From a virus: a stretch of 64,000 nucleotides of DNA. Where the stretch lies: UHGV virus genome UHGV-1421865; one strand, given 5' to 3'. The position numbers and the translations under genes were made by a program. Below, piece by piece: positions 6,443 through 61,540 of the stretch; position 1 is the first letter of the stretch, and every line of letters starts with the position of its first letter. The notes under the pieces are model-generated. The model made no database searches. It had not been told where the DNA came from and worked only from the letters and a program-made list of their open reading frames with translations.

Positions 6443-9193
6443 ATGTTTTATACATTAGCAAAAACAGATCCCGCGTTATCGGGGAAATTCGGTCTTAGTA
6501 TAGACTACAAAGAGCACACCGTTGCTAATTTGATGTCTTTAGATACTAAAGCGACAATTCATAATATACCGGTAAAGTTATATAACGGACAGTACGAGTT
6601 CGATATTCGTCGTTGTTATAAACACTATTATGATAAATTTTATGGCACTACAAGCGATGATCCTAAGATGTACGAGTTCGGTGCCCAGCGAGTACAGAAA
6701 CAACTGTTCACACGACAGTTTATGTTTTATGCACCGTTCTATTGTGACGCAGTGAACGACATGCCCGATTCGTTTGTTATCGATATTTATCGAAAAGACA
6801 GAATACTGTCGTCGGTGAGTATTCCGTTAGACGATAAAACGTACGTAGGAAAATACTTACGTTCTTATATAGAGAAAATAGACGATAAAACAATAAACAT
6901 ATCTGTGCGCGAAAACGGTTATATCGTTACATATTACGGTATTGATCTTATAAAAGGCGGCTTGGTAGAATTCGAATATAATAACCTACATTTTGACGAG
7001 AATGGCTTGCCCAATATAGAAACAGGTTATTTCAACAAGAAAATCGTAATGCGGCAAATAATACCCCTTTGTATCACATTCGACTTAGACGAGTACATCG
7101 GACAAGACGTGATAATCCAAGGGTATTATGTCAAAAACAACATTAAATTGCCTTTATATAACATAGATAGGGTAAAAGAAACAAACAAACCGGAATATAA
7201 AAACGCATTGTCGAACAATACAACACCGTATCTATTACGCGAACGACTCCGAGAAACAGAACGCGACTATACATCACCTGTCACCAATGTATATTTCATC
7301 GACGACCTCTATACAGACGAAGAACATACTAAATCATTAAGTGACTTTATCAAATTTGCACAGAGTAAAACAAATACAAGTCTATTAAAGAACATTCAAG
7401 ACGTCGTTAATACCTATCGGTGGATAAACCGGCAATCGACAGACGCCACGGTTGTCGACGGAAAAGCGATGTACAACAATGTACTGTATTCTGGACTGGG
7501 TGATGCCAAACAGTTTAGAATCGAAGTGAATCCGATTGTAAATAACCTTAATAAAGAACATATTGTATCGTCGCGTTTTGTTATCGACAAACCGAACATG
7601 TCAAATACCAGAATCGACATCAATACGAAGGAAGGTCAAAATACATTACGAGTAGTTTCCGAACACAAGAAATACACCGTCGATTTCAATGCGTTTTTCG
7701 AACCGACGGACGATGTCACAGACAAGTCCGATTTGTACATAGAATATACTGGATTTATAAACGAATACATCACGTTAGTCGACTTCTGTGACAAGGCAGA
7801 TGGTGAAAAAGATTATATAAAAAATAATAGACTGGACGGGCAGTACGAATATACCGGTATAACAGTGGCCCCGAATAGTAACTATATCGGCGACGACTTA
7901 TACGTTGCCTCAGAAAACGGTTATACAGAATACAACGATAAAGTACACAAAGGACGGTTATATAAAAAGCAATCGTTTATTGACATTACAAAATTCAAAG
8001 ACCGGATTGTATTTGGTGCGGCAACAAGATACACCTACATACCCGTCGACGAATACAATAACAACGGCTATTTTGTAAAGACAGATTCATTGTACAGAAA
8101 CTTGTATATTTTAGGATATACACCATACAATGTCATTAAAGACTTGGGTGAAGCTGTATCGAACAAACAAATGTACTGCCAAGTCGATAATAACAAGTAT
8201 ACCGTAAAAAATTTTAGTACGTTGTTCACATCACCGGAACAAGTTGATATGTTTTATAATATAGATAACGACAGTAGACTGTATAACTCGACTAGTGACT
8301 TTGCAGCCTGGTTACCTTACCGCTTTATCACAGTACCGAAGTATTTTAATATAACAGCAGATATATATAAGAAATACATCAAATGGGACGGTAAATTTAA
8401 GCACATGTTATATCTTGTCGCATCGACAGAAAACAAACCGGCTGTGTATAATCCCAGTGCGACAAAAATAGATACAACGTCTATATTAGTAGACCCTCTA
8501 TTTGGTAACTTCGTCCAGTTCGAAGATAACGATATTGCTTTATATAACAAATTAAGATCGAAATGCGACTTTATAAACGAGCAAGCCGTCCTAAAAGAGC
8601 ACAATGCAGCATGCTTTATACGCTACGACTTAGCACCCGAAGGGGTACGTTCAACAGCCAAAAAGTATTATAAGAAGATTATCTCCGGTAGTCGTAACAG
8701 TTATATAACAAGTCGAAAAGAAAACGACGTATTTGTCTACACATTGAACGTAAACGTCACGTCGGAAGGGCACGACTGGATTTTACCGAACATGAATATA
8801 GACGTACTGAACGATCCTGAATACGTTAAGGATAACATTAGTATCATATTACCGTTATTAAAAAACAACCTCAACTTGACGGCGATAAACGAACCTGGAT
8901 TTTTTGAGCGACCGTACAAGAATAAGTTCTATTTAGGTTATTATACTCCTTATATAAAACTGTTAGAACAAACAAACCAGTTCTATTATAAGACAGAAAG
9001 GGTAGAAAACAAGTATTTACAGTATAATAAACTGTTCCCCTTACAAGACAAGGTCGTTATACCGTACGAGACCGATATATGGCAACCTTTATTATACTAC
9101 TACGGCCTATCAGACAGTACACATTTAGCATTCTTACAACGTGTTTACAACGTCATCATAACAGATGACAAAATAGAATATACACTTTTATAA
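6443..9193 (+). CDS. Large virion structural protein, 916 aa, function unknown
   Basis: Long uninterrupted ORF directly after terL inside the plus-strand structural block. Confidence 0.6.
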   Translation: MFYTLAKTDPALSGKFGLSIDYKEHTVANLMSLDTKATIHNIPVKLYNGQYEFDIRRCYKHYYDKFYGTTSDDPKMYEFGAQRVQKQLFTRQFMFYAPFYCDAVNDMPDSFVIDIYRKDRILSSVSIPLDDKTYVGKYLRSYIEKIDDKTINISVRENGYIVTYYGIDLIKGGLVEFEYNNLHFDENGLPNIETGYFNKKIVMRQIIPLCITFDLDEYIGQDVIIQGYYVKNNIKLPLYNIDRVKETNKPEYKNALSNNTTPYLLRERLRETERDYTSPVTNVYFIDDLYTDEEHTKSLSDFIKFAQSKTNTSLLKNIQDVVNTYRWINRQSTDATVVDGKAMYNNVLYSGLGDAKQFRIEVNPIVNNLNKEHIVSSRFVIDKPNMSNTRIDINTKEGQNTLRVVSEHKKYTVDFNAFFEPTDDVTDKSDLYIEYTGFINEYITLVDFCDKADGEKDYIKNNRLDGQYEYTGITVAPNSNYIGDDLYVASENGYTEYNDKVHKGRLYKKQSFIDITKFKDRIVFGAATRYTYIPVDEYNNNGYFVKTDSLYRNLYILGYTPYNVIKDLGEAVSNKQMYCQVDNNKYTVKNFSTLFTSPEQVDMFYNIDNDSRLYNSTSDFAAWLPYRFITVPKYFNITADIYKKYIKWDGKFKHMLYLVASTENKPAVYNPSATKIDTTSILVDPLFGNFVQFEDNDIALYNKLRSKCDFINEQAVLKEHNAACFIRYDLAPEGVRSTAKKYYKKIISGSRNSYITSRKENDVFVYTLNVNVTSEGHDWILPNMNIDVLNDPEYVKDNISIILPLLKNNLNLTAINEPGFFERPYKNKFYLGYYTPYIKLLEQTNQFYYKTERVENKYLQYNKLFPLQDKVVIPYETDIWQPLLYYYGLSDSTHLAFLQRVYNVIITDDKIEYTLL

Positions 9194-17841: not shown

Positions 17842-18228
17842 ATGAACAAGTCGATTGTTGACCTTGCTAACGGATTTATGATCCTCAAACCTGGTTTTGA
17901 ATATAGAAAAGACGATGTCGAAAGATACCTAATGACAAACGGTTGGTCTGTGTTAAAGTCAAAGGATGAATACATCGACGTCTTCAAAGCGGAAGAGTTG
18001 TATAAGATGTACGAATTCGAAGACTTCTATGTCGACCTCGTTGCTTATATGACGTCTGGTAAGTGCACCATATATCTACTATACAAACCGTCGTACGATC
18101 CTATAAAGGAACTGACTGCGTTAAAAGAGATTATTCGACGGGATTATAGTCTAGATAAAATGAAAAATGTAGTCCATAGTTCAGACAGTGTGGAGAACGT
18201 GCAACGAGAGGCTAAATTATTTTTCTAA
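17842..18228 (+). CDS. Hypothetical protein
   Basis: 128-aa ORF. Confidence 0.45.
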   Translation: MNKSIVDLANGFMILKPGFEYRKDDVERYLMTNGWSVLKSKDEYIDVFKAEELYKMYEFEDFYVDLVAYMTSGKCTIYLLYKPSYDPIKELTALKEIIRRDYSLDKMKNVVHSSDSVENVQREAKLFF

Positions 18229-23014: not shown

Positions 23015-23371
23015 TTATTTAGTGTTGCCGTCGGTTGTATCGTCTTCGGTGTGTTTGTTTATATAAGTGCCGATTTCTTTCGACGCTAAATTGATAGCTT
23101 CCGATGTTTGTTTTGTATCAAGTTCTTTATAAGGAGGATCGGAATATGCCACAACACCGGGCTTCCCTACCCATAGGTACCATTTATTGTCTGTTTTACC
23201 TAATAGAAATTGGAATTCGTCGTTATAGGTGTATTCTATTTTCTGAAACTTTGAGTCATCATCCAATTCTGAGACTGTGTTACCTTGTTCGTCGTATATA
23301 TTAAAGACAACATCTCGTGTATTATCGGCTGCCGACTCTTGTAGTTTAATAAAAGAATATATTGATTTCAT
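23015..23371 (-). CDS. Hypothetical protein
   Basis: 118-aa ORF. Confidence 0.45.
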   Translation of the reverse strand: MKSIYSFIKLQESAADNTRDVVFNIYDEQGNTVSELDDDSKFQKIEYTYNDEFQFLLGKTDNKWYLWVGKPGVVAYSDPPYKELDTKQTSEAINLASKEIGTYINKHTEDDTTDGNTK

Positions 23372-23372
23372 A

Positions 23373-25031
23373 TTATACGTTTCTTAGTTTGTCAACGAAG
23401 TCGAAAATACAAAGTTGGTCTGTACCTGAATTTTCCGCTTCTTGTTTATATTTGTTATAATACTCTACATTATGGTCTTGTGCCCACCCTAGCGGACTGG
23501 AGATGATTAGATTCGCACCGAAATCACCGTGACATTGTCGTTCTACGAGACCGTCGCGCAACGAAACATCTTCTGGACATCCAATCTCTTTCATTTTGTC
23601 GATAACAGCTTGGTGGCTATACCCTCGACCCCATGTGTTATAATAAAGTATATTGGTATATTTCTCTTTACAACGTTTTACGAAATGAATAAAAGCGTCT
23701 AAGCTATCTCCTTCGTGGTACAGCCGAACATAGCATCTTTCCGGAAACTTGTTTATAATATCCAACGCTGTTTCGACACTGAACTTGTACTTTCCCCAAC
23801 CGTGGTATGTATAACCGTCGTCGGTAGCCGTACCGTGTCGCCACGAACATTTCGGTCGTAAGTCGAAGTAGCGAACACCCATATCGTATTGCTCGTACAA
23901 GTTGATACGTTGACAGGTCGATTTCGACTCCAGCGCCTTTTGGAATATATTACCTGCAAACTTAGCGAAAGTACAACTGTTATGTGTACCGAAGATAACA
24001 CGTCCCGTAGGAATTTTCTTTATAATAGCATTTCTCATAATTACTACATTATTATACGATACTTTTAACGACACTGGTACATCTCTACCTTTTACTTGTT
24101 TTAGTACACGAACAGTGAGTTTATAATAGAAATTCGACAAGTCTTCTCTGGTAACTTCCAGGTATTCGTTGTCGTATTCTACATTGAAATCGGACGGTAC
24201 TGTCTTTTGCTCTGCACCTTGCTGTTGATATGCCTTAAATACAAGTTCTACTGTATTGTCTTTACTAAGTACCATAGGATTGTCCTTTATAAGCGACGTA
24301 TCTAATAAATGATATGTTATCGGAAGTTCCTTTCGTACGACACTGAGTCTTATTTCGTCACGCCCGATACGAATAACTCTATCTGACACATCACTACTCG
24401 TGCTGGTAAATTTCAGTCTGTATATGCACTCTTCTGTTAGCGTCGTTGTTTCGATTGTGAATTTAGACGTATCGTAATCTATATTCGGCAAATTCCAAAT
24501 CCGGGTACCATTTTCGTCCCGTACAGTACTCTTTATATCTATTATAACAAAACCGTCGGCGTCGATACTAGTCGGGCGATTAAGTATTTCTGTATTGTAG
24601 ACTATGCTTGTTAACACCGTATATTCTTTATTATAAATAATATCACCGTCAACATTAGTCACAACTAGATTATAAGTACCTGATTTGTACGGCATTATGT
24701 TGATTATTTTTTGAGATAAGTCTATTGTCGTTGTTTTGTCGCCGAAAGTAGCTGTTAAAGTGTCTGTACGGCCGTCTCTATCGGTACCTTTATAAGCCGT
24801 TATATTATAGCTAATTGTTGTTTGTTGTCCTACTCGCAGCACTACATTTTCAGTAACAGAAATAGATGATATTCGTTTCAGTACGACATGGTCTTGGGGC
24901 GCTACACTGTTTTGTTGTATATATTCTAGTATATAAGAACGAAATTTAGGATTGTCCATACAAGATCTTATAAAACGAGAAGATAACGTTTTTGCTTTTG
25001 CCAGCTTTATATAATACTCTTTTTCTGTCAT
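23373..25031 (-). CDS. Ig-like-domain protein with a C-terminal PI-PLC X-domain-like phosphodiesterase
   Basis: The C-terminal region contains IFGTHNSCTF...VRYFDLR..., which matches the catalytic-core pattern of PI-PLC-like phosphodiesterases (GTH[DN]S ... RYxDLR). The N-terminal half reads as beta-sandwich or Ig-like segments. The ATGA start/stop overlap couples it to the small ORF upstream. Confidence 0.6.
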   Translation of the reverse strand: MTEKEYYIKLAKAKTLSSRFIRSCMDNPKFRSYILEYIQQNSVAPQDHVVLKRISSISVTENVVLRVGQQTTISYNITAYKGTDRDGRTDTLTATFGDKTTTIDLSQKIINIMPYKSGTYNLVVTNVDGDIIYNKEYTVLTSIVYNTEILNRPTSIDADGFVIIDIKSTVRDENGTRIWNLPNIDYDTSKFTIETTTLTEECIYRLKFTSTSSDVSDRVIRIGRDEIRLSVVRKELPITYHLLDTSLIKDNPMVLSKDNTVELVFKAYQQQGAEQKTVPSDFNVEYDNEYLEVTREDLSNFYYKLTVRVLKQVKGRDVPVSLKVSYNNVVIMRNAIIKKIPTGRVIFGTHNSCTFAKFAGNIFQKALESKSTCQRINLYEQYDMGVRYFDLRPKCSWRHGTATDDGYTYHGWGKYKFSVETALDIINKFPERCYVRLYHEGDSLDAFIHFVKRCKEKYTNILYYNTWGRGYSHQAVIDKMKEIGCPEDVSLRDGLVERQCHGDFGANLIISSPLGWAQDHNVEYYNKYKQEAENSGTDQLCIFDFVDKLRNV

Positions 25032-25207
25032 TGTGTTTTTCTTTGTAGTTTTCCGTTCGCGACCAAATAGTCCAATATATATGATTTCATCTGTTCGAAC
25101 TCCGGACTGGAATAAAACTCGTCGCTGAGTGATTCAGCCTCATCTGCGATAAACGAGTATTCTACATCGCCGACTATTATAGATTCTATATATTCCTTCT
25201 CGTCCAT
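25028..25207 (-). CDS. Small acidic protein of 59 aa
   Basis: I translated it by hand as MDEKEYIESIIVGDVEYSFIADEAESLSDEFYSSPEFEQMKSYILDYLVANGKLQRKTQ. Its TGA overlaps the ATG of the downstream gene. Confidence 0.35.
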   Translation of the reverse strand: MDEKEYIESIIVGDVEYSFIADEAESLSDEFYSSPEFEQMKSYILDYLVANGKLQRKTQ

Positions 25208-25617: not shown

Positions 25618-26559
25618 TTAGAGTAGATGTTCCAGTTCTTTGTTTGTGTATCCATGATTTTCTCCGAACAGTTTTATAACAAATGCGTTATTATACTGTG
25701 CCATCTCATCAAAGCCACTATCGAGACTAGTCTTTCCGTCCATAACACCGCTAATATCGACCAGGGCGCGTTCGTACATCGCTTTAATGACATCTTTGTC
25801 GTTGATGTCATTCAGCGTTTCTGCAATGGCCTTGACAGTACCCAGTCGACTTTTCGGTCTGTCGCCATTGACAATAGAATTTCTCTGTGCACTATAATTT
25901 ACTTCGACGCTATTGATAATAACAATCTTACGGGCTCGCATCAACCACTGTGGTATCGTCCGAACATCTTCAAACTCACGTTCTCTACTATACGGATAAC
26001 TCAGTACTATTTTTCGTGTATAGATTTTGTTCCATACATTGAATTTGATAGCATTCTCCTTATATAGCGAAATAAGTGCTTGTTTCGGGTTGTTTTCAAT
26101 ACCGAACGACTCTTTTACAACACTGTTCTTTAGTCTACCGCTCAAATCACGAACTCGAACGCCGTATTCGACAATATCAGCGTTGTTTTCTAGTATTGTG
26201 ATTACAGCCGCATGGACGAAATCGGCGTTGATATAGTAGTCGTCTGCATCTAAAAACATAAAGTAGTCACCGGTACCGGCGTCGATACCGACAGCACGAG
26301 CATATCCACAACCCATATTTTCCGACAGCTCTATACTTTTATATGCGATATGGGAATTATCCGGACGTTCCGAAATCAGCCGTTCTGCAACTGTCATCGA
26401 CGAATCGGTACTACCGTCGTTAACCAGGATAAATTCAATGTTGACGTCGTCTGTTCGCTGCTTTAGAATAGACTGAACTGCACGACCTATGGTTGTCTCG
26501 GCATTGTATACCGTCATTATAATAGACACTTTATGTCTTTGTACGTCCTGTTCGTTCAT
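25618..26559 (-). CDS. Family-2 glycosyltransferase
   Basis: N-terminal SIIMTVYNAE...LVNDGSTDSS and a later DADD motif are typical of GT2 (GT-A fold). Confidence 0.75.
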   Translation of the reverse strand: MNEQDVQRHKVSIIMTVYNAETTIGRAVQSILKQRTDDVNIEFILVNDGSTDSSMTVAERLISERPDNSHIAYKSIELSENMGCGYARAVGIDAGTGDYFMFLDADDYYINADFVHAAVITILENNADIVEYGVRVRDLSGRLKNSVVKESFGIENNPKQALISLYKENAIKFNVWNKIYTRKIVLSYPYSREREFEDVRTIPQWLMRARKIVIINSVEVNYSAQRNSIVNGDRPKSRLGTVKAIAETLNDINDKDVIKAMYERALVDISGVMDGKTSLDSGFDEMAQYNNAFVIKLFGENHGYTNKELEHLL

Positions 26560-27157
26560 ATTGTGGGTAGTTAAAGATTAAAATAGTAGTGTCGTCGATG
26601 CGATTTAGTACCGGGAATGTTAACGTAGACTTTGTAGATGCCTTCTTAACAGTGCCTTTGCCAGTAACGATAACAAAATCACCGGGTTGGACGCTACTGT
26701 CATCACAAAGTACGTAGCATTTACCTAAGATATTCACTTGTCGCCATTCCTGCCGTGTGCTACGAGGCATATATATGGCACTGTCATCGTAATCTGGGTG
26801 TTTAATAGGTGTGTATTCAACATCCTTTACGGTTGTCATAATCGTCATTTCCAGTACCGGGTCGTAGACTTTCTGACCGCGCAAGATGTCTTTTCGTTCC
26901 ATATACGGGTCCCCCATACCGTTTGCACACCATTTCAACGGGTGTTCTTCTGGGTCGTCGGAGACATATTCCCCGTTCATCGCTGTGAACCCTAAGAAGA
27001 AACCACCGGTATACGGTTCTATCTTACCGGGTTCTGTCTTCGACAGCTGTACCGGTGTACCGTAAGGGAGCGACCCTGTCAGATCGCTCCTTATCTCGTA
27101 CATCTCACAGACACCGAATTTATGAACAAAATCCTGATAGTCTATAATGTTTTTCAT
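26531..27157 (-). CDS. Hypothetical protein
   Basis: 208-aa ORF. Confidence 0.45.
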   Translation of the reverse strand: MKNIIDYQDFVHKFGVCEMYEIRSDLTGSLPYGTPVQLSKTEPGKIEPYTGGFFLGFTAMNGEYVSDDPEEHPLKWCANGMGDPYMERKDILRGQKVYDPVLEMTIMTTVKDVEYTPIKHPDYDDSAIYMPRSTRQEWRQVNILGKCYVLCDDSSVQPGDFVIVTGKGTVKKASTKSTLTFPVLNRIDDTTILIFNYPQYERTGRTKT

Positions 27158-27582: not shown

Positions 27583-28815
27583 TTAAAAAAGTTCTAGTTG
27601 TACAGCCTCTCCGACTTCACAATCCGGTAGCTGCATTGTTGTCATAAAACGATTAAGCGGAATAATCACCGTCTTGTCCCATTGAATTGTTCTGTTCGGT
27701 ACCGGTGCCCATTCCGGCAACTCACCCTGTGGGAATGCAAAATACTGTCCTTTGTCGAATTCGTAGTATTTAATCTTCCCGGATGTCGTCTTCAGGAACT
27801 TCTGGTTGTTTTTGTACGCCAGATGGTTATAGCGAGCGATACCATGAACACTAACGGGACAACGTTTTTCGAGTAACAACATCTCTTCGTCGTCTATAAC
27901 ATATTTCTTATAGTTACCGATACCGACGCTCGACGAAATATCCTGTACCGGTGCCGTCATGAACTCGTCGCGGTACTTTAACAGTTTCTTGTTAAATTCG
28001 GTTAAGAAAGTACTTTTATCGCTCACATTATAGTCGAACATCAACATCTTCACCATATCGGTAAGGATTTTACGCGACAGCTGTGGCGTCGTCGACTTGA
28101 TGATTTCGATACCGGTACCCGATACCTTCGGACTGTCCAAGAATTTACCTTTATTAAAGACGAGACCTTTGATGTATTTCTTCTTCTTTAGATAAATACA
28201 CGACTTGGAAATTGTCTCAAGCTCAAATTCATGGATGCTAGTTGCATGACGAGGTTTGTAAATCGCCTCGCACCATTCGTTATTCAGCTTATTCTGGAAT
28301 TCTGTATTATAACGAAGAATCCATTCTGTCTTTGCTCTGTCGGACTTGTACAGTTCTTTGTATTCCGGTGTCATACACTCGAAGAACGTACCGTAGCTGA
28401 CATATACCGAATCGGTATCGGAGAACACTGCGACCTGTTGTTGTCGATACCAGTCGTGTTTAGACTCGTCCAGAGCGAAATTAAATTGTTCCCATAGGTC
28501 GTACCGTGTCCAGATGGTCTCATGGAACCACTCTTGCATATTGTGCCACATCGTTTGTGTTAGATGCCGACACTCACCGGTAATGTCACCTGCCAATTCT
28601 ACGTTATAAAAATAGAATCCTGGATTTCCACTCGCACCGTATGCCCCGTTACCGGCCAATTTCTTAGACAATTCGAACATGGTATAGTCGTGACGGAGGT
28701 CTTCGACCTTGTCCCGTAGTTCTGTTAGCTCTTCCAACGACATATTTGCCATCGCCTCTGGTGATGTCTTCAATACGTCAGAAATAATTGTCTTGATGTC
28801 GGGAGAAAATTCCAT
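27583..28815 (-). CDS. Family-B DNA polymerase, C-terminal (palm/thumb) portion only
   Basis: Motif B-like KKLAGNGAYGASGNPGFYFYNVELAGDITGECRHL (compare KxxxNSxYG...YYD...AxxITxxGR) and motif C VFSDTDSVYV (YGDTDS). Neither an exonuclease domain nor motif A (DxxSLYPS) is present in this ORF or in the adjacent ORFs. Confidence 0.7.
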   Translation of the reverse strand: MEFSPDIKTIISDVLKTSPEAMANMSLEELTELRDKVEDLRHDYTMFELSKKLAGNGAYGASGNPGFYFYNVELAGDITGECRHLTQTMWHNMQEWFHETIWTRYDLWEQFNFALDESKHDWYRQQQVAVFSDTDSVYVSYGTFFECMTPEYKELYKSDRAKTEWILRYNTEFQNKLNNEWCEAIYKPRHATSIHEFELETISKSCIYLKKKKYIKGLVFNKGKFLDSPKVSGTGIEIIKSTTPQLSRKILTDMVKMLMFDYNVSDKSTFLTEFNKKLLKYRDEFMTAPVQDISSSVGIGNYKKYVIDDEEMLLLEKRCPVSVHGIARYNHLAYKNNQKFLKTTSGKIKYYEFDKGQYFAFPQGELPEWAPVPNRTIQWDKTVIIPLNRFMTTMQLPDCEVGEAVQLELF

Positions 28816-55705: not shown

Positions 55706-55781
55706 TGGTTGCCTTGCAAGGATTCGAACCTCGACTATTTGAACCAAAATCAAATGTGCTAAACCATTACACCACAAGGCA
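55706..55781 (-). tRNA. tRNA-Gln(TTG), CCA encoded
   Basis: Acceptor TGCCTTG/CAAGGCA, anticodon arm TTTGA-ttttggt-TCAAA, T loop ttcgaat, 3' ACCA. Confidence 0.7.
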
Positions 55782-55811
55782 AGACAATTATTGTGTACTA
55801 TACACAATCAG

Positions 55812-55885
55812 TCACGCCGGTGGGACTCGAACTCACAACTCCTTGCTCCCAAAGCAAGTACCTTAACCGATTAGGCTACAGCGTG
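55812..55885 (-). tRNA. tRNA-Pro(TGG)
   Basis: Anticodon arm CTTGC-tttggga-GCAAG and T loop ttcgagt; the acceptor has one wobble pair. Confidence 0.65.
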
Positions 55886-56022
55886 GGATCTTATAGTGTT
55901 CATGACCACATATAAGATCTGTACGATGAAAGGCTACACATCGCCATGTAAGATTTGTATTTTATACAAATCACCGACCGTTAGGCTATATTTTTATAAA
56001 AAATAGCTGTCGGGCACTGTCG

Positions 56023-56109
56023 CGGAAGGTGCAAGATTCGAACTTGCGGTACAGTTACCTGTACATCTCCTTAGCAGGGAGACGGTTTAAGCCACTCACC
56101 CAACCTTCC
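56023..56109 (-). tRNA. tRNA-Ser(GCT), class II
   Basis: Acceptor GGAAGGT/ACCTTCC, anticodon arm TCTCC-ctgctaa-GGAGA, long variable arm, T arm GCAAG-ttcgaat-CTTGC. Confidence 0.8.
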
Positions 56110-56114
56110 TAAAA

Positions 56115-56195
56115 ATAGTCCCAGGCCAGGATTCGAACCTGAATTTCGTCTCCAATGAGACGTGTATTAGCCTTTATACTAACTGAGTAATATAG
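56115..56195 (-). pseudogene. tRNA-like remnant: a T arm is present, but there is no foldable anticodon arm or 5' acceptor
   Basis: caggTTCGAATcctg T arm; the central segment forms a cgtctc-attg-gagacg mini-hairpin instead of an anticodon arm. Confidence 0.3.
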
Positions 56196-56270
56196 TTGCG
56201 GGAGGGGGACTCGAACCCAACCGATCTTCAGCTTATGAGGCTGACGAGATGCCATCTTCTCTATCCCGCG
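56196..56270 (-). tRNA. Initiator-type tRNA-fMet(CAT)
   Basis: Starts CGCGGGA and ends TCCCGCAA, giving a C1-A72 mismatch as in bacterial tRNA-fMet. Anticodon arm is TCAGC-ctcataa-GCTGA. Confidence 0.65.
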
Positions 56271-56280
56271 ATATTTTGAT

Positions 56281-56580
56281 TTAGTTTTCCATTTTTGGTT
56301 TATAAGATACTGTCTTAATTTCTTCACCTTCAAAAGCATAGCAATTAACATCACAATCAGAAGCCAGCATGTATTCACTGTATACATTAGATAAACCTTC
56401 AATACCCAAAATACCGTCTTCTAATTGAAAGTAAGAAGTGCTGGTTTCGTACCATCTATGACGGTTTATATCAATGTTACTTGCTAATTGTGTTTCGTAG
56501 TCAATTACACTTTCTGCATCGTCTATATAATAGAGTTCTTCAGAATTATTTATTCGTTCTATTGCTTCTTTTAGTTTCAT
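56281..56580 (-). CDS. Hypothetical protein
   Basis: 99-aa ORF. Confidence 0.4.
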   Translation of the reverse strand: MKLKEAIERINNSEELYYIDDAESVIDYETQLASNIDINRHRWYETSTSYFQLEDGILGIEGLSNVYSEYMLASDCDVNCYAFEGEEIKTVSYKPKMEN

Positions 56581-56586
56581 AATTAA

Positions 56587-56770
56587 ATTGAATTAAAAAC
56601 AAATGTCGTCATGCCAATTGCTTAACATATCACTACGGAATTCTTTCGCATCATCTAAATACTCAGACAAAAACGAAGACACTTCCTTAAAGTTGCTTAT
56701 GTCACCATTAAAGGGTACGTTAAGTACATCTTGACAAAATCTAACGGCAGCTTTTTGTCTTTCTGTTGTC
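56587..56770 (-). CDS. Small hypothetical protein of about 60 aa
   Basis: Hand translation gives MTTERQKAAVRFCQDVLNVPFNGDISNFKEVSSFLSEYLDDAKEFRSDMLSNWHDDICF. Confidence 0.3.
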
Positions 56771-56773
56771 ATA

Positions 56774-56846
56774 AGTTCGCTCGCTGGAACTCGAATCCAG
56801 GACTCCTTGATTAAAAGTCAAGTGCTCTACCAACTGAGCTACGAGC
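56774..56846 (-). tRNA. tRNA-Lys(TTT)
   Basis: Acceptor TCGCTCG/CGAGCGA, D arm GCTC-agttggtag-AGC, anticodon arm CTTGA-cttttaa-TCAAG, T arm CTGGA-ttcgagt-TCCAG. Confidence 0.8.
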
Positions 56847-56867
56847 GATTCTATAAACTATACAAGT

Positions 56868-56941
56868 TGCGGACAATGCAGGATTCGAACCTGCGACCTA
56901 CTGATTAACAGTCAGCCGCTCTAACCATCTGAGCTAAATGT
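56868..56941 (-). tRNA. tRNA-Asn(GTT)
   Basis: Anticodon loop ctgttaa, D arm GCTC-agatggtta-GAGC, T arm GCAGG-ttcgaat-CCTGC, discriminator G. Confidence 0.75.
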
Positions 56942-56955
56942 CCATACTCTATTAT

Positions 56956-57027
56956 AGAGCTTCCTGTCAGAGTCGAACTGACAACCTCTTCATTACAAGT
57001 GAAGCGCACTGCCATTGTGCTAAGGAA
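56956..57027 (-). tRNA. tRNA-Thr(TGT)
   Basis: Acceptor GCTTCCT/AGGAAGC, anticodon arm CTTCA-cttgtaa-TGAAG, T arm GTCAG-ttcgact-CTGAC. Confidence 0.8.
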
Positions 57028-57147
57028 GCGAATGCTTCCAGTATATCACGTTAGTGACATTAAGGAAGCGAATGCTTCCAGTATATCACGTTAGTGACAT
57101 TAAGGAAGCGAATGCTTCCAGTATATCACGTTAGTGACATTAAGGAA
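57021..57147. repeat. 40-bp tandem direct repeat, 3.2 copies, starting inside the 5' end of tRNA-Thr
   Basis: Unit aggaagcgaatgcttccagtatatcacgttagtgacatta, three times and perfect. Each unit holds the palindrome ggaagc-gaat-gcttcc and a TATACT (-10-like) on the tRNA strand. Confidence 0.85.
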
Positions 57148-57215
57148 GCAGGTGTAGTCTAAATTAGACTTTGATTGTGGTGTAAAATCACGCTAATTAA
57201 ACTACATTCATTGAG

Positions 57216-57290
57216 GGTGTCCTATGGGATTCGAACCCATGACCTTCAGAACCACAATCTGACGTTCTAACCGTCTGAACTAAGGACAAC
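57216..57290 (-). tRNA. tRNA-His(GTG) with an encoded G-1
   Basis: Anticodon arm TCAGA-ttgtggt-TCTGA, D arm GTTC-agacggtta-GAAC, T arm ATGGG-ttcgaat-CCCAT. The extra 5' G pairs with discriminator C73, a His-specific feature. Confidence 0.7.
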
Positions 57291-57388
57291 ATGATGGTGG
57301 AAAAACGACTGCGCCCCACCTACGCAAGGTCTTCAAAGACCACCGACCGTGTTTTATAGTTAACTATAAAAGTAATCAGGTACTGTCG

Positions 57389-57488
57389 TGGACCAGGTAG
57401 GACTTGAACCTACGACTCTGGAAAACAAACTAGAGAAAGGAGGTTAAACTAGTGTGAATTCGGCTCTGGCCATCTGAGCTACTGGTCC
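57389..57488 (-). pseudogene. Interrupted or intron-like tRNA gene: acceptor, D and T arms are canonical, but the anticodon and variable region is 49 nt
   Basis: GGACCAG-TA-GCTC-agatggcca-GAGC and GTAGG-ttcaagt-CCTAC-CTGGTCC-A. No 17-nt anticodon arm can be folded. The insert carries an actag/ctagt stem and, on the opposite strand, AAGGAGGT followed by GTG then TGA. Confidence 0.45.
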
Positions 57489-57582
57489 GGTTGACGGTCA
57501 AACGCTCCACACCGTCGGGTGGATGTCTGTACTAAACAGACAACAAACAGTATGCTTGAATCAGAGGCCGTTGTGCTTATTG

Positions 57583-57657
57583 ACAGTGTTATAGGATTCG
57601 AAACTACATCTCTTGATTCAAAACATCAAGGCTCTACCAATCTTTGAGCTAGACACC
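57583..57657 (-). pseudogene. tRNA-like locus with a Lys-type anticodon arm; the acceptor does not pair
   Basis: D arm GCTC-aaagattggta-GAGC and anticodon arm CTTGAT-gttttga-ATCAAG are fine; the T stem and acceptor are aberrant. Confidence 0.3.
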
Positions 57658-57864
57658 GCGCATGTAGTTTTTCTATGCCCACATAAACTACAAAAATGTT
57701 CTGTTTGCTATGTATTCTTTGAACACGTAGTGTTCATACGTTGAACAGCTGTCTGTTTGAGGTTAATTCTGTGCACAGAAACATAGCCTTAACATGGGTC
57801 TTTACAATATGATTTGCAACGCAATACGATTCGTACTAAGCACGACACCAGTATTGTTCTATTT

Positions 57865-57898
57865 ATAATAATAGCGAACTTTGTGAGGTAAATCAGCG
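57865..57898 (-). promoter_or_regulatory. Sigma70-like promoter with the conserved spacer, upstream of the tRNA block
   Basis: On the minus strand: cTGATTtacctcacaaagttcgcTATTAT. Confidence 0.5.
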
Positions 57899-57923
57899 TA
57901 ATTTACAAGAAAAATCAGTAAAG

Positions 57924-58271
57924 TCAATCATTAAATTCATAATTTAGTACCTTACGGACTTTTTTATAAGTGCTAATTACTATCTGGTCGTTATAGACCC
58001 AATAGGTTTCCTCTTCATTGTGAGGGGGGATTCCACTGTTTATTTTCTTTAGATAAAAGAGAATGAATATCAGCAGCGTAACGAAACAAAGGTAGTGTAC
58101 GTTACCGATAAGCAACAACAGTATATGCCACAGTTTAACTCGGAAATTCCTATTAGGGTACCTGTGTACATTAAAACCTCGGTGGTCTACATCGAAATCG
58201 TAGTACTGTGTATTGAACAACACACGTAGTTCTATTAGAAACAGAACAATACCTGGTACATACCACATCAT
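57924..58271 (-). CDS. Membrane protein with two or three TM helices
   Basis: Hydrophobic N-terminus MMWYVPGIVLFLIELRVLF and LLLIGNVHYLCFVTLLIFILFYL. Confidence 0.45.
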   Translation of the reverse strand: MMWYVPGIVLFLIELRVLFNTQYYDFDVDHRGFNVHRYPNRNFRVKLWHILLLLIGNVHYLCFVTLLIFILFYLKKINSGIPPHNEEETYWVYNDQIVISTYKKVRKVLNYEFND

Positions 58272-58302
58272 ATTTTAAGAACTTAATTAAACTTCAACGT
58301 AT

Positions 58303-58500
58303 TTAGTCATAGCCTTTATAGACTCTTTTGAACTTGTGAACGTCACAGTCTTCAAAGACGACTCTGTTTCTGTGTCTGATGTACCGATTCAATTGATTCT
58401 TCAACCATTTTCTTTCACCGGCCTTGATGTACTTTCTTTTCTTGTGGTCTTTATTGTAAGGCAATAAAGTTGAACACAGTTGTAGTCTACGTAATGCCAT
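58303..58500 (-). CDS. Small basic protein of 65 aa
   Basis: Lys/Arg-rich: KRKYIKAGERKWLKNQLNRYIRHRNR. Confidence 0.35.
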   Translation of the reverse strand: MALRRLQLCSTLLPYNKDHKKRKYIKAGERKWLKNQLNRYIRHRNRVVFEDCDVHKFKRVYKGYD

Positions 58501-58505
58501 ATCTA

Positions 58506-58862
58506 CTAATATAATCCAGCATGTCGCTTAATAGGTTCATAATACAACTCGTCTACTCGTTCGTTGCTGTACTTATCGTTTATTGCGACAACCAGCTTAC
58601 CATCTTTTTCTGAAACAACATACTCAGCAATGGTCCGACCGAACACATAAAGTACGATGTGTAGGTTTTTATAGTTCGAATGATCGAACATCACTTCAAT
58701 TTCATCGAGCAGGGCACATTCATTATGATACAGATACGGCAATGTTTCTACGAAATCGATGATGCTATCGGTATTGGTGAATTTTGAATATGCGCAAAAC
58801 ATAACAAACTCGTCTCTGTCACTATCGACAGGATAACCTGACTTCATTTCTGTGTACAACAT
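58506..58862 (-). CDS. Hypothetical protein
   Basis: 118-aa ORF with a conserved-spacer promoter immediately upstream. Confidence 0.5.
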   Translation of the reverse strand: MLYTEMKSGYPVDSDRDEFVMFCAYSKFTNTDSIIDFVETLPYLYHNECALLDEIEVMFDHSNYKNLHIVLYVFGRTIAEYVVSEKDGKLVVAINDKYSNERVDELYYEPIKRHAGLY

Positions 58863-58904
58863 ACTGTGTAATTTTTACTGGTCTTGTTTCTAACTTGATT
58901 TGTT

Positions 58905-58941
58905 ATATATTATATAGTCTACTTTATGAATAAAATCAACT
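58905..58941 (-). promoter_or_regulatory. Sigma70-like promoter with the conserved spacer
   Basis: On the minus strand: TTGATTttattcataaagtagacTATATAAT. Confidence 0.55.
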
Positions 58942-59111
58942 TATGTAGTACCAGAAGCGGGACTCATCGTACATGAAAATCTAAATCATTACATTTAGTT
59001 TTCACTTCTTGCTTCAATCTATCACTACTAATTGTAATCAATATCACAATCCCATAGGAGGATAGTCCACAAGCGTAAATTCGGTACTACGAATACCTAC
59101 TAGTTTTGTTC

Positions 59112-60251
59112 TTATACTGCACTTATCCTACGACCCTCGTAGAGGATATTTAGTGCTGCATTGTAATCTCTATCATGGTTTGTGCCACATTTAGGACAAC
59201 ACCAATAACGGTCTTGTAACTTCAAGTCATTGTGTACATAACCACATTGTGAACAAGTCTTTGAGCTGGGATAAAATCGATCAATAAGTACAACCTTCTT
59301 GTCGTTTTGTAAAGCCTTAGTTGATAGCACAGTCTTGAACTTAAAAAATCCAACTTCTTGGATTGCCTTGGCAAGTTTATGATTTTTCATCATCCCTTAT
59401 ACATTCAAGTCTTCCATGTAGACAGTATCATACTGTGACAATAACTCATTTACTACAGAATGTATATAGTTTTCCTTCTTATTCGTAATAGTCTCAAACA
59501 CTTTCGCTATCCTCTTACACTGTTTATAGAAGTTGTTTGAACCTTTACGTTTCCTCGACAACTGTCGTTGTAGCTTTACAAGTCGCTTTTCTTCTTTATT
59601 ATAGAAATGTTTGTTGTCAAATGTAGTGTCATCTGATGTTATAACAAAATCCTTAACACCTAGATCGATACCGACATCACGACCTGTTTTATTGAACTTA
59701 GTAAGTTCGTTATCATTCATATCAATAAGAATAGATAAGAAGAAATTCCCACTCTTGGTTTTCGATAAGGTTGCACTTCTTATATTGTTCTTATATCTAC
59801 GCAATCTTGCCAAGTACAAATCAGAACATCTAAATGATATGTCTTTTAATTTGGTTGTAAGTGTTATCTTACGTGTCACAAATGTATTTTTCTTGGATAT
59901 TGTACCTTTCGGGAACAACGCAGATTGGTTATTCTTCTTCGACTTGAACTTTGGAAACCCATTATGTTGTTTGAAGAATTTTTGGTAGCCACTATCCATT
60001 TGTCTAATAGCTTGATTCATTATCTTTGTATTCTGTTCCTTCAACCAAGCATATTGTTCATCTTTCAATAACTCATGATGAAAATGTTTGGATAGTTGAG
60101 TTGTTCCAAGATTTGTTTTATCTGTGTTATACGCTTCTTGTTTACGAGCAAGCATGTAGTTATAAACAAAACGATAACACCCAAGCACACTATTTAGTAC
60201 CTGTTCTTGTGTTTTATTTGGATATAACCTTATTTTGATTGCTCGTAACAT
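59112..60251 (-). pseudogene. tnpB: IS200/IS605-family tnpB (OMEGA / RNA-guided nuclease), interrupted by an in-frame TAA
   Basis: N-terminus MLRAIKIRLYPNKTQEQVLNSVLGCYRFVYN and GIDLGVKDF (RuvC-I) ...MEDLNV, then TAA, then in the same frame GMMKNHKLAKAIQEVGFFKF...CSQCG...CPKCG...HDRDYNAALNI (zinc finger plus RuvC-III). Hand translation confirms a single in-frame stop where a Lys codon is expected. Confidence 0.8.
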
Positions 60252-60293
60252 TGATTTCCTTATTTAACTACTTGATTGTTTACTGTTACTATT

Positions 60294-60382
60294 TGGTGCC
60301 CGAAGTGGGGGTCGAACCCACACGAACATTACTGTTCAAGAGATCCTAAATCTCTCATGTATACCAATTTCATCATTCGGGC
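60294..60382 (-). tRNA. tRNA-Leu(TAG), class II, CCA encoded
   Basis: Acceptor GCCCGAA/TTCGGGC, anticodon arm AGAGA-tttagga-TCTCT, variable-arm hairpin GAACA-gtaa-TGTTC, T arm GTGGG-ttcgacc-CCCAC, 3' ACCA. Confidence 0.8.
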
Positions 60383-60635
60383 AACTAAGTATGGTTATAA
60401 CGTTACCAACGCAGCTCACTAAGACTAATTCGCGACTTAGCAAATAATGATTACTCCGAGATTTGGAATGTATAATTACTCTATCTTCTACGGCTGTATG
60501 ATAGAAACCTAATTAGTTTAGGATACTCTGGGTCCCAATGTGCCCAAATTTTGCATACTCTTATCGTACGTTATATATGTTAATAGTATGCGAAAAACAT
60601 ATACACGCCAGTTTCTAGTGACTTGGGTACTGTTG

Positions 60636-60709
60636 TGGACCAGGTAGGGATTGAACCTACGACCTTCGCCTTATGAGGGCGCCGCTCTGTACCACTGAGC
60701 TACAAGTCC
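60636..60709 (-). tRNA. tRNA-Met/Ile(CAT), elongator type
   Basis: Anticodon loop ctcataa; the T arm and 3' acceptor are the same as in the interrupted tRNA at 57389. The acceptor has one mismatch. Confidence 0.55.
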
Positions 60710-60714
60710 TTATT

Positions 60715-60790
60715 CAAGACAGTATAGGATTCGAACCTATGACGTTGGTATAATCACCTTAAGCATTCGTCCACTCTGCCAAGCTGTCTT
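60715..60790 (-). pseudogene. tRNA-like locus: good T arm and acceptor, but the D and anticodon arms do not fold
   Basis: ATAGG-ttcgaat-CCTAT, acceptor AGACAGC/ACTGTCT; no canonical anticodon arm. Confidence 0.3.
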
Positions 60791-60809
60791 GTTATAAATG
60801 TGTATTAGT

Positions 60810-61193
60810 TTAGTAAGTAAAAGTAATACTATAGATATAATCGTCGTTATAGTTTTCAAGAATCTCTTGAAATACAGTTAAGACTTTCTTCACATCCTTA
60901 AAATAATTATTATTGTATTTTGACGGTACAAATAAGAAATGATCTGTTGTCGGTAACAATTCAGTACACATGCTGTGATCTTCTAATACAAGTGTACAAT
61001 CCTCAACTAAATACTCAATTTCTTCTTTTGTAATTGGTGTATTATGAATACAATTTTCTCCGTACGGATGTCCAGCGAAATACCTATAAAGAAAGTTAAT
61101 ATCAGTAAGAAGACTAATATCTTCATATTCAGAACCCATACCCGTACGGTGTTCTTCTTTAAGTCCTCTACCAATCTCAATTTTCAAACTCAT
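60810..61193 (-). CDS. Hypothetical protein
   Basis: 127-aa ORF immediately downstream of tRNA-Leu(TAA). Confidence 0.5.
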   Translation of the reverse strand: MSLKIEIGRGLKEEHRTGMGSEYEDISLLTDINFLYRYFAGHPYGENCIHNTPITKEEIEYLVEDCTLVLEDHSMCTELLPTTDHFLFVPSKYNNNYFKDVKKVLTVFQEILENYNDDYIYSITFTY

Positions 61194-61221
61194 AACCTAC
61201 TTGATTGTTTACTGTTACTAT

Positions 61222-61308
61222 TTGGTACCCGAAGTGGGGGTCGAACCCACATGGTCTACTGACCAAAAGATTTTAAATCTTTCATGTATACCGATTTCAT
61301 CATTCGGG
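61222..61308 (-). tRNA. tRNA-Leu(TAA), class II, CCA encoded
   Basis: A paralog of the tRNA at 60294 including about 30 bp of 3' flank. Anticodon arm AAAGA-tttaaaa-TCTTT. Confidence 0.75.
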
Positions 61309-61469
61309 CATTGTATATACTATAATCCGTCCCCAACCGCTATTATAGTATATGATTCATTACAAATTTATGGCTTCTGACTGGACGGTTTTGTAATTAC
61401 GCAGGAAATGTTCTTCATCTTAGGAAGACAAATCCCGAAACTGAATGTATTTATACATCAGCGAGTAGT

Positions 61470-61540
61470 ATTCAGGCTGGGACTTGAACCCAGATTGGAT
61501 GTGTATAAGACATCTAGCCTAACCTTTAACTGACCTGAAC
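61470..61540 (-). tRNA. tRNA-like, probably Ile(TAT); the D arm is poorly resolved
   Basis: Anticodon arm GATGT-cttatac-ACATC, T arm CTGGG-ttcaagt-CCCAG, acceptor TTCAGGT/GCCTGAA. Confidence 0.45.

Follow-up and report, generated by a model that had tools for sequence, protein, structure and literature searches.

A compact PI-PLC-type domain carried on an immunoglobulin-like stalk, encoded by a large, apparently T4-related phage

The virus genome UHGV-1421865, from which a stretch of 64,000 nucleotides (the window) was analysed here, encodes on its minus strand a protein of 552 amino acids (aa), hereafter the target. A first-pass annotation, made from the letters and the open reading frames (ORFs) alone, read it as a structural-type protein with a phosphodiesterase domain resembling phosphatidylinositol-specific phospholipase C (PI-PLC). 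The locus raises the question of what the C-terminal domain is, whether it is likely to work as an enzyme and where in the phage life cycle it might act. The analysis points to a modular, late-type protein with an N-terminal hairpin that would be docked, most likely to the virion, a stalk of immunoglobulin-like (Ig-like) domains and a PI-PLC-type tip acting on a phosphodiester of the host envelope. Taken as a whole, this reading is given a probability of about 0.45; its parts differ in strength.

The link to PI-PLC required a family profile, because scanning the target directly against Pfam and PHROG gave no significant match; the Pfam scan returned no match to PF00388 (PI-PLC-X) even at E ≤ 10. 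In searches of PDB sequences, the single target sequence had Listeria PI-PLC as its two top matches (E = 0.06), and a profile of ten close homologues placed 13 PI-PLC chains at the top (E = 0.0065). The profile of a wider alignment, A3, which comprises the target and 48 relatives (49 sequences; adding 334 to its domain numbering gives full-length numbering), matched Listeria PlcA (2plc) at E = 2.8e-14, and 25 PI-PLC sequences fell below 2e-7. Nearly two thirds of the A3 members (32/49) match Pfam PI-PLC-X themselves at E ≤ 1, with a best E-value of 1.7e-6 and at least three relatives above the 23.1-bit cut-off. The AlphaFold model of the C-terminal domain built on A3 has a β/α pattern (predicted local distance difference test, pLDDT, 85; predicted template modelling score, pTM, 0.84). 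When it was compared with the PDB by Foldseek, the top 13 matches were all bacterial PI-PLCs (probability 1.00, E 9e-6 to 3.5e-3), the barrel being reduced relative to these enzymes (template modelling score over the query, TMq, 0.36–0.55). These results identify the domain as a genuine homologue of bacterial PI-PLCs in sequence and fold, and its assignment as a PLC-like or PI-PLC-type domain is made with high confidence. Glycerophosphodiester phosphodiesterase (GDPD) identity, which the first-pass annotation had offered as an alternative, was rejected, since the Pfam matches of the 49 members include no GDPD family, and GDPD chains are absent from the PDB sequence matches (E ≤ 1) and from the Foldseek top 50. 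In the BFVD structure search of the same model, a GP-PDE viral protein came only sixth (E = 3.3e-3).

The alignments suggest that the catalytic machinery of PI-PLC is largely retained. Three A3 columns are invariant (Q40, H76 and P179 in domain numbering), and twelve more, H16, N17, C39, Q47, G51, R53, F55, D56, R58, G77, D210 and F211, are conserved in at least 90% of the sequences. In full-length numbering, H350 aligns with the His of GTHD in the Listeria and S. aureus enzymes, reaches the 90% level and is taken here to be equivalent to His32 of B. cereus PI-PLC, the general base. Residues D390 and R392, conserved to the same degree, align with IDIR of Listeria and FDIR of S. aureus; they are presumably the counterparts of Asp67 and Arg69, which serve in phosphate binding and transition-state stabilisation. 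The invariant H410, aligned to YHG/HHG of PI-PLCs, is assumed to be equivalent to His82, the general acid. At the C-terminus, D544 of the IFDF motif is conserved in at least 90% of A3, and the surrounding P..WAK..N...DF is collinear with P.QYAAALN...MDF of Listeria PI-PLC, a stretch that alone scores only 0.6 bits and is individually non-significant; because of this collinearity D544 is probably the equivalent of Asp274, the partner of the base His. Mutants H32, H82, D274 and D198 are named in PDB titles among the Foldseek matches. E440 aligns with the Glu of RLKDE in Listeria PI-PLC, and a KCQ motif specific to the compact family stands where PI-PLC has TQ. As judged from the alignments, the target domain keeps the base His, the Asp/Arg pair and the acid His, and probably the C-terminal Asp too. 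It is likely to be enzymatically active, and it is predicted to be metal-independent because an Arg occupies the Ca2+ site, by analogy with bacterial PI-PLC.

The central claim of the first-pass annotation, a PLC-like phosphodiesterase domain, is thus borne out by the PI-PLC fold match and by both catalytic His residues being conserved across the 49 diverse relatives. The GTHNS...RYFDLR motifs it had pointed to are real; the 250 aa it had allotted to them shrink to a catalytic domain of about 210 aa (343–552). Its view of a later His/Asp-rich region as a PI-PLC signature does not hold: the residues concerned (QCHGDFGANL / AQDHN, aa 499–521) form a lineage-specific insert modelled with low confidence, while the conserved second His is H410 of YHG and the late Asp is D544 of IFDF.

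The closest characterised enzymes are the bacterial PI-PLCs (Listeria PlcA, 1AOD/2PLC; B. cereus/thuringiensis, 1PTD/1PTG; S. aureus Plc, 3V16/4F2T; EC 4.6.1.13; PF00388), which split phosphatidylinositol into diacylglycerol and inositol 1,2-cyclic phosphate. They share with the target a homologous PLC-like TIM-barrel fold and the collinear motifs GTH(D/N)S, (T/C)Q, Q..GxRxxDxR, (Y/H)HG, xRLxxE and P..(W/Y)A...N...D(F/Y). Unlike them, the target domain has about 210 aa, Asn at the Asp33 position, a central barrel that cannot be aligned, no secretion signal and a score below Pfam PI-PLC-X, and it is phage-encoded and fused to three Ig-like domains. In B. cereus PI-PLC, inositol is bound by Lys115, Arg163, Asp198 and Tyr200, all in the central part of the barrel. 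The column at the Lys115 equivalent is Tyr438 in the target and is not conserved in A3, and no counterparts for Arg163, Asp198 and Tyr200 could be assigned from the profile alignments, which cover positions ~3–125 and the last strand. Filing the protein as a bona fide PI-PLC is unwarranted, because Asp33 is replaced, the sequence lies below the Pfam threshold, secretion is not indicated and the inositol-binding residues are unassignable.

The N-terminal part is of a different nature. In the full-length model, helices at aa 18–41 are followed by a linker and three all-β domains, with pLDDT mostly between 75 and 95. The β-domains matched tandem Ig-like arrays of surface proteins in Foldseek (S-layer proteins SbsC, SbsB and EA1; invasin; titin) at E~1e-11, in agreement with the Ig or β-sandwich repeats that the first-pass annotation had seen there; according to the model, the fold is generic Ig-like. 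The hairpin has many invariant residues in alignment A1, in which the Pro/Thr-rich linker after it varies in length and carries indels. Neither a signal peptide nor a transmembrane segment was detected in the target: the maximum Kyte-Doolittle hydropathy (KD) over 19 residues is 0.99, and the N-terminus is hydrophilic (mean KD -0.35). Ten full-length homologues were found at 65–88% identity, and a megablast of the locus against cultured phages gave no nucleotide match. The catalytic domain is 78–99% identical among homologues and the N-terminal region 57–84%. Between the target and one of the homologous loci (L001), the ratio of non-synonymous to synonymous substitution rates (dN/dS) comes to 0.010 in the catalytic domain, against 0.30 in the Ig region and 0.31 in the hairpin; overall, the hairpin values range over 0.13–0.31. 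On these figures the catalytic domain appears to be under very strong purifying selection, and the pattern fits an active enzyme carried on a fast-evolving, probably exposed stalk. Display on the virion is plausible in view of the Ig stalk, the missing secretion signal, the conserved hairpin and part of the family contexts; the chances that the protein is virion-borne are rated as even.

The catalytic domain belongs to a wide family of unannotated phage proteins. When 1.84 billion representatives were searched exhaustively with HMMER, 79 relatives were found at E ≤ 1e-3; nearly all of them stand alone, have 175–220 aa and start with the GTH motif. A word-indexed search with A3 gave at least 318 clusters at E ≤ 1e-5. 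The third-best match of the exhaustive search (P0012, E = 1.6e-11) was rejected as a false positive: in this GYR-repeat protein of 989 aa, 'DDGYRYK' repeats match 'DDGYTYHG' of the target 13 times. Stand-alone relatives are 22–30% identical to the target domain. Source names among the 120 listed matches and four inspected clusters all read 'hypothetical protein', and the largest contig carrying a stand-alone member among the matches listed and clusters inspected measures 182 kb. The best viral structural match was A0A7M1RZ08, a 195-aa protein of the uncultured crAss-like phage cr128_1 (TM 0.66/0.73, E = 3e-7). A tblastn search of 50,697 phage records found matches only in cr85_1 (QOR59440.1) and cr118_1 (QOR58363.1), hypothetical proteins of Crassvirales from human faeces. 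No model for the compact family was found in PHROG, NCBIfam or PADLOC. For the target's own lineage, the search with alignment A2 found no close relative in 185,579 species genomes and one distant locus only in IMG/VR. Fusions are rare, being limited to the target lineage and one further protein (P0082), and the target lineage alone has the Ig-like stalk. The proteins of cr128_1, cr118_1 and cr85_1 have the same compact domain and the same conserved residues as the target, which differs from the stand-alone proteins of ~175–220 aa by the stalk fusion and the QCHGDFGANL...AQDHN insert.

The genomic contexts of the stand-alone genes are diverse, with placement in a tail/capsid block in three of nine and elsewhere in six. 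In one crAss-like contig (L008) the homologue lies between fibre genes near Crass_capsid, in another (L010) it lies downstream of four large genes (322–804 aa) near Crass_capsid, and in a third (L013) it is found between Crass_capsid and CrAss_Ring_2. One further contig has it ~2 kb upstream of the endolysin genes GH108 and PG_binding_3.

Several known systems invite comparison. T4 Hoc and other Ig-decorated tail or fibre proteins resemble the target in having tandem Ig-like domains and no signal peptide, and in the T4-related phage background; Hoc has no sequence homology to the target. It attaches to the capsid by its C-terminal domain and is not known to carry an enzyme, unlike the target with its putative N-terminal anchor and catalytic tip. 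GDPD domains are metal-dependent and belong to a different branch, with a different host type, a different substrate (teichoic acid) and genes in clear tail modules. In the tail modules of phages of Gram-positive hosts they cut teichoic acid phosphodiesters (PMC10194240); the tail GDPD domains of enterococcal and staphylococcal phages are of the same superfamily as the target and form the closest functional precedent for a virion-borne phosphodiesterase (PMC10194240). Structural similarity (E 2e-4 to 6e-4) also extends to PI-PLC-like proteins of giant viruses, namely A0A481YY43 of Marseillevirus LCMAC201, named 'phosphatidylinositol diacylglycerol-lyase', and A0A481Z2V0 of Pithovirus LCPAC001. 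These are full-size (~275–312 aa) canonical PI-PLCs of eukaryote-infecting viruses, whereas the target has the compact phage form. A literature search for phage enzymes of the PI-PLC or PLC-like phosphodiesterase type yielded no relevant report. Because PI-PLC is nearest, GDPD is unmatched and no phage PI-PLC report was found, the target is assigned to a compact branch of the PLC-like superfamily that is specific to phages, and within it stands out by its fusion to an Ig-like stalk, the only one of its kind.

The window contains genes for a portal (phrog_213), a large terminase (TerL) and a T4 gp2-like DNA end protector, and by its gene content it comes from a large T4-related phage. Contigs with proteins of the target's 90% cluster reach 205–223 kb, and the NCBI copies are titled 'MAG TPA: hypothetical protein [Caudoviricetes sp.]'. 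The closest TerL is that of Tenacibaculum phage PTm1 (31.6% identity, E = 3e-69; next group 4e-43), and the closest portals are those of uncultured 460–735-kb phages and Sphingomonas phage PAU. Matches to a 1110-aa protein of the window are confined to Tenacibaculum, Chryseobacterium, PAU and uncultured phages. Such relatives suggest a Bacteroidota host. The T4 late-promoter-like octamer TATAAATA is enriched in the window (19 sites against 9.6 expected, a number reached in 0 of 100 shuffles). Plus-strand sites lie, for example, at 20638, 42667 and 52451, and the plus-strand genes that start at 20653, 42708 and 52478 are preceded by copies at a distance of 15–41 nt. This enrichment suggests T4-type late transcription in a distant T4 relative.

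A Bacteroidota host would bring inositol lipids into consideration. Sphingomonas and Bacteroidota both produce sphingolipids (PMC9246714). The portal and the 1110-aa protein match PAU as well as Bacteroidota phages, and the sphingolipid production shared by the hosts may be coincidence. Sphingolipids make up more than 50% of the lipid of outer-membrane vesicles (OMVs) of B. thetaiotaomicron, inositol-phosphoceramide (IPC) and ethanolamine-phosphoceramide (EPC) being the most abundant among them (PMC8791184), and inositol sphingolipids of Bacteroidota influence how capsules are expressed, how well antimicrobial peptides are resisted and how fit the bacteria are in the gut (PMC9246714). Host affinity and this literature make inositol lipids a possible rather than a probable substrate.

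The target is the middle gene of a three-gene cassette (Table 1), which is conserved in three related loci (L001, L002 and L014). In L014, a lineage of 66% identity, the cassette is kept though the neighbouring genes for a family 2 glycosyltransferase (GT2) and for gp2 are absent. A hidden Markov model of the target hairpin, run against all 325 ORFs of the window, had the 59-aa first cassette protein as its sole other match, a weak one (E = 0.0014), and a PDB sequence search with the 118-aa third protein found no relative. The GtrB-like GT2 gene of the window is located ~600 bp upstream of the target, and the unrelated crAss-like contig L013 has a GT2 gene, at 7156–7998, 3 nt upstream of its stand-alone PLC-like gene. 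This linkage was rejected as a functional clue, being absent in L014 and present in only one of the nine stand-alone contexts (L013); the proximity may be due to chance or reflect a loose connection in function, in envelope modification. Overlapping the GT2 gene at its end is the gene of a 208-aa protein with a Peptidase_G2 / intramolecular-chaperone (IMC) domain, which is typical of tail spike and fibre C-termini; the protein is unusually short for its kind. Further on lies a family-B DNA polymerase (PolB) ORF of just 410 aa, which matches only the C-terminal PolB half (positions 489–838 of 856 in phrog_262); this suggests a split or fragmented polymerase gene. An ORF of the same 410 aa is found in L001 too.

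Table 1. Coordinates of the target gene, its predicted parts and other features of the window.
Feature	Position	Strand	Basis or remark
Whole target gene	23373..25031	-	552 aa; helical hairpin, three Ig-like domains, compact PI-PLC-like domain; ORF list
N-terminal helical hairpin, aa 1–43, candidate docking module	24903..25031	-	Helices 18–26 and 28–41 in full-length model
Ig-like β-sandwich domain 1, aa ~51–140	24612..24881	-	All-β, pLDDT ~76–91; Foldseek: SbsC, SbsB, EA1, titin, invasin
Ig-like β-sandwich domain 2, aa ~143–232	24336..24605	-	Full-length model, Foldseek; 9-aa deletion in two homologues (alignment A1)
Ig-like β-sandwich domain 3, aa ~236–338	24018..24326	-	pLDDT 85–95; weak Pfam Ig_TPPC8_4th match, E = 0.063
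Compact PI-PLC-type (PLC-like TIM-barrel) phosphodiesterase domain, aa 343–552, ~210 aa	23376..24005	-	Model, Foldseek, profile, conservation
GTHNS motif, aa 348–352; H350 predicted general base, N351 at Asp33 site	23976..23990	-	HMMER alignments to Listeria and S. aureus PI-PLC
RYFDLR motif, aa 387–392; D390 and R392	23856..23873	-	Aligned to IRYIDIR (Listeria) and VRFFDIR (S. aureus)
TYHG motif, aa 408–411; H410 predicted general acid	23799..23810	-	Aligned to YHG/HHG of PI-PLCs
IFDF motif, last β-strand; D544	23397..23408	-	Model strand 205–209; D and F at least 90% conserved
59-aa ORF, first cassette gene	25028..25207	-	TGA overlaps target ATG (ATGA)
118-aa ORF, third cassette gene	23015..23371	-	Starts 1 nt past target stop; weak Big_8 Ig match, E = 9e-4
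GT2 (GtrB-like) glycosyltransferase gene	25618..26559	-	
Peptidase_G2 / IMC protein gene	26531..27157	-	208 aa
Family-B DNA polymerase ORF	27583..28815	-	410 aa
Nucleoside diphosphate kinase gene	17842..18228	+	
tRNA gene cluster	55706..61540	-	14 genes
Aberrant tRNA call	56118..56188		2-nt 'tt' anticodon
Insertion-sequence (IS)-type transposase ORF	59397..60251		phrog_506

Combined, these elements suggest the following mechanism. The N-terminal hairpin would dock the protein to a partner, most likely the virion, and the flexible linker with the three Ig-like domains would serve as a spacer or adhesion stalk. At its tip, the compact and presumably metal-independent PI-PLC-type phosphodiesterase would act by analogy with the B. 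cereus and Listeria enzymes: H350, polarised by D544, would deprotonate the hydroxyl next to the phosphodiester, and this hydroxyl would attack the phosphorus, with R392 stabilising the transition state. H410 would then protonate the leaving lipid or alcohol; the products of this intramolecular phosphotransfer would be a cyclic phosphate head group and a free lipid alcohol. The bond attacked would lie in a phosphodiester head group of the host envelope, for which phosphatidylinositol or inositol-phosphoceramide of a Bacteroidota host are the best candidates, and cleavage may take place at the cell surface in adsorption or penetration, or may destroy receptors or OMV decoys. In evolutionary terms, the catalytic module circulates as a stand-alone gene product of ~190 aa in many crAss-like and other gut phages, and this jumbo phage would have tethered it to an Ig stalk within the cassette. 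The fullest version of this proposal, in which gut Bacteroidota phages carry a dedicated and hitherto unrecognised family of miniature PI-PLCs directed against host inositol lipids, mounted here on the virion through the stalk, is held to be unlikely.

A number of observations weigh against the reading of the target as an envelope-directed, virion-borne enzyme. The barrel is ~100 aa shorter than that of PI-PLC (~210 against ~300 aa), the A3 profile alignments span the first ~105–125 positions and the last strand only, and it is for this reason that the inositol-binding residues cannot be picked out. Asp33, the partner of the acid His, is Asn351 in the target, and Asn occupies this column in at least 90% of A3; eukaryotic PLCs likewise have His-Asn at this position. 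For the target, neither a known virion protein nor a PHROG could be detected as a homologue, the PHROGs scan giving only phrog_35613 (unknown function, E = 0.058). Five of the nine stand-alone contexts lie among small or metabolic genes (Thy1, Cpn60, guanylate kinase) or near the ends of crAss-like genomes, and most members of the family, because they stand alone and start at the GTH motif, have neither a secretion signal nor an anchoring module. The neighbours in the window are mixed, a gp2-like end protector and the IMC-domain protein against the non-virion GT2 and PolB; the GT2 and PolB genes adjoin the target on a flank that L014 does not share. Upstream of the cassette, the octamer TATAAATA does not occur on the minus strand, and it therefore gives no timing information for the target. 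Lastly, the relatives of the transposase encoded in the window are just 28–44% identical to it and scattered over Bacillota, Bacteroidales and others, which makes host inference by transposase uninformative. The 'structural' character and adsorption role proposed in the first-pass annotation are consequently upheld in part: the Ig domains, the lack of a signal peptide and some crAss-like tail/capsid contexts favour them, while the missing virion-protein homology, the mixed neighbourhood and the mostly anchorless relatives do not.

Some of the same observations would suit an enzyme outside the virion, acting on host membrane phospholipids from inside the cell or after the holin and endolysin, with the Ig domains binding envelope glycans. 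Its role could be outer-membrane disruption, like that of mycobacteriophage LysB and spanins, lipid remodelling for superinfection exclusion, or the release of progeny from debris and OMVs. The target has no signal peptide; the stand-alone homologues, too, have neither anchor nor signal and begin at the catalytic motif, many of them lie among small non-structural genes, and the one near GH108 and PG_binding_3 stands ~2 kb upstream of these lysis genes. The GT2 gene, of a surface-modification type, adjoins the PLC-like gene in L013 and is near the target in the window. The architecture of the target speaks for the opposite. Phage Ig-like domains, as is generally held and as Fraser et al. 2006 reportedly described, occur overwhelmingly in virion proteins, and it is rather in docked appendages that a conserved hairpin with a linker is typical; three crAss-like contexts are, moreover, inside tail/capsid blocks. 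An intracellular or egress function is regarded as somewhat unlikely.

Two further explanations retain or abandon the virion but change the substrate. If the protein were a virion-borne depolymerase of a non-lipid phosphodiester polymer (capsule, phosphoglycan or a teichoic-acid-like polymer), it would be the functional equivalent of the tail GDPD. Bacteroidota hosts are not known to have teichoic acids, and the phage and family affinities point to Bacteroidota phages, although the transposase relatives occur mostly in Bacillota. As components of tail modules, GDPD domains from the same superfamily are well established (PMC10194240), and the half of the PI-PLC barrel that binds inositol is absent from the target or cannot be aligned with it, so its specificity may have changed; all sequence and fold affinities are nevertheless to PI-PLC, with GDPD unmatched in Pfam and PDB sequences and GP-PDE only at the sixth rank in BFVD. 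A depolymerase of this type is considered improbable. A soluble phosphodiesterase of small molecules (glycerophosphoinositol, a cyclic or nucleotide signal, a defence messenger) or a ligand-binding pseudo-enzyme, with the Ig stalk being incidental, is very improbable. The Asn at Asp33, the family-specific KCQ absent from PI-PLC, the ~100 aa missing from the PI-PLC barrel, which presumably include the interfacial rim loops of PI-PLC, and the predominance of stand-alone cytoplasmic versions in the family would agree with it. The strict conservation of His/Arg/His/Asp with a dN/dS of 0.01 argues against a pseudo-enzyme, an Ig-like stalk makes little sense on a cytoplasmic enzyme, and neither a PADLOC match nor a curated NCBIfam family was found. 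The docked PI-PLC-type enzyme directed at the host envelope is retained as the preferred reading.

Some features of the window lie apart from these questions. The nucleoside diphosphate kinase gene is situated among very large plus-strand ORFs (916, 1173, 1500, 503 and 482 aa), none of which has a PHROG match and three of which were scanned against Pfam without a match; they may be structural. The tRNA gene cluster includes one aberrant call and is interrupted by the transposase ORF (Table 1).

The identification of the domain gives a testable function to at least 318 protein clusters on phage-sized contigs of gut metagenomes, including those of crAss-like phages. If the substrate were a host inositol lipid, phage infection would be linked to the eukaryote-like inositol sphingolipids of Bacteroidota, and the glycanases, peptidoglycan hydrolases and GDPDs already known from virions would be joined by an enzyme directed at lipids. 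If the miniature PI-PLC were carried on the virion, it would be the first particle-borne phage phospholipase C, breaching or stripping the sphingolipid-rich outer membrane or destroying OMV decoys. If the enzyme acted inside the cell instead, it would point to an unrecognised step of lipid remodelling or egress.

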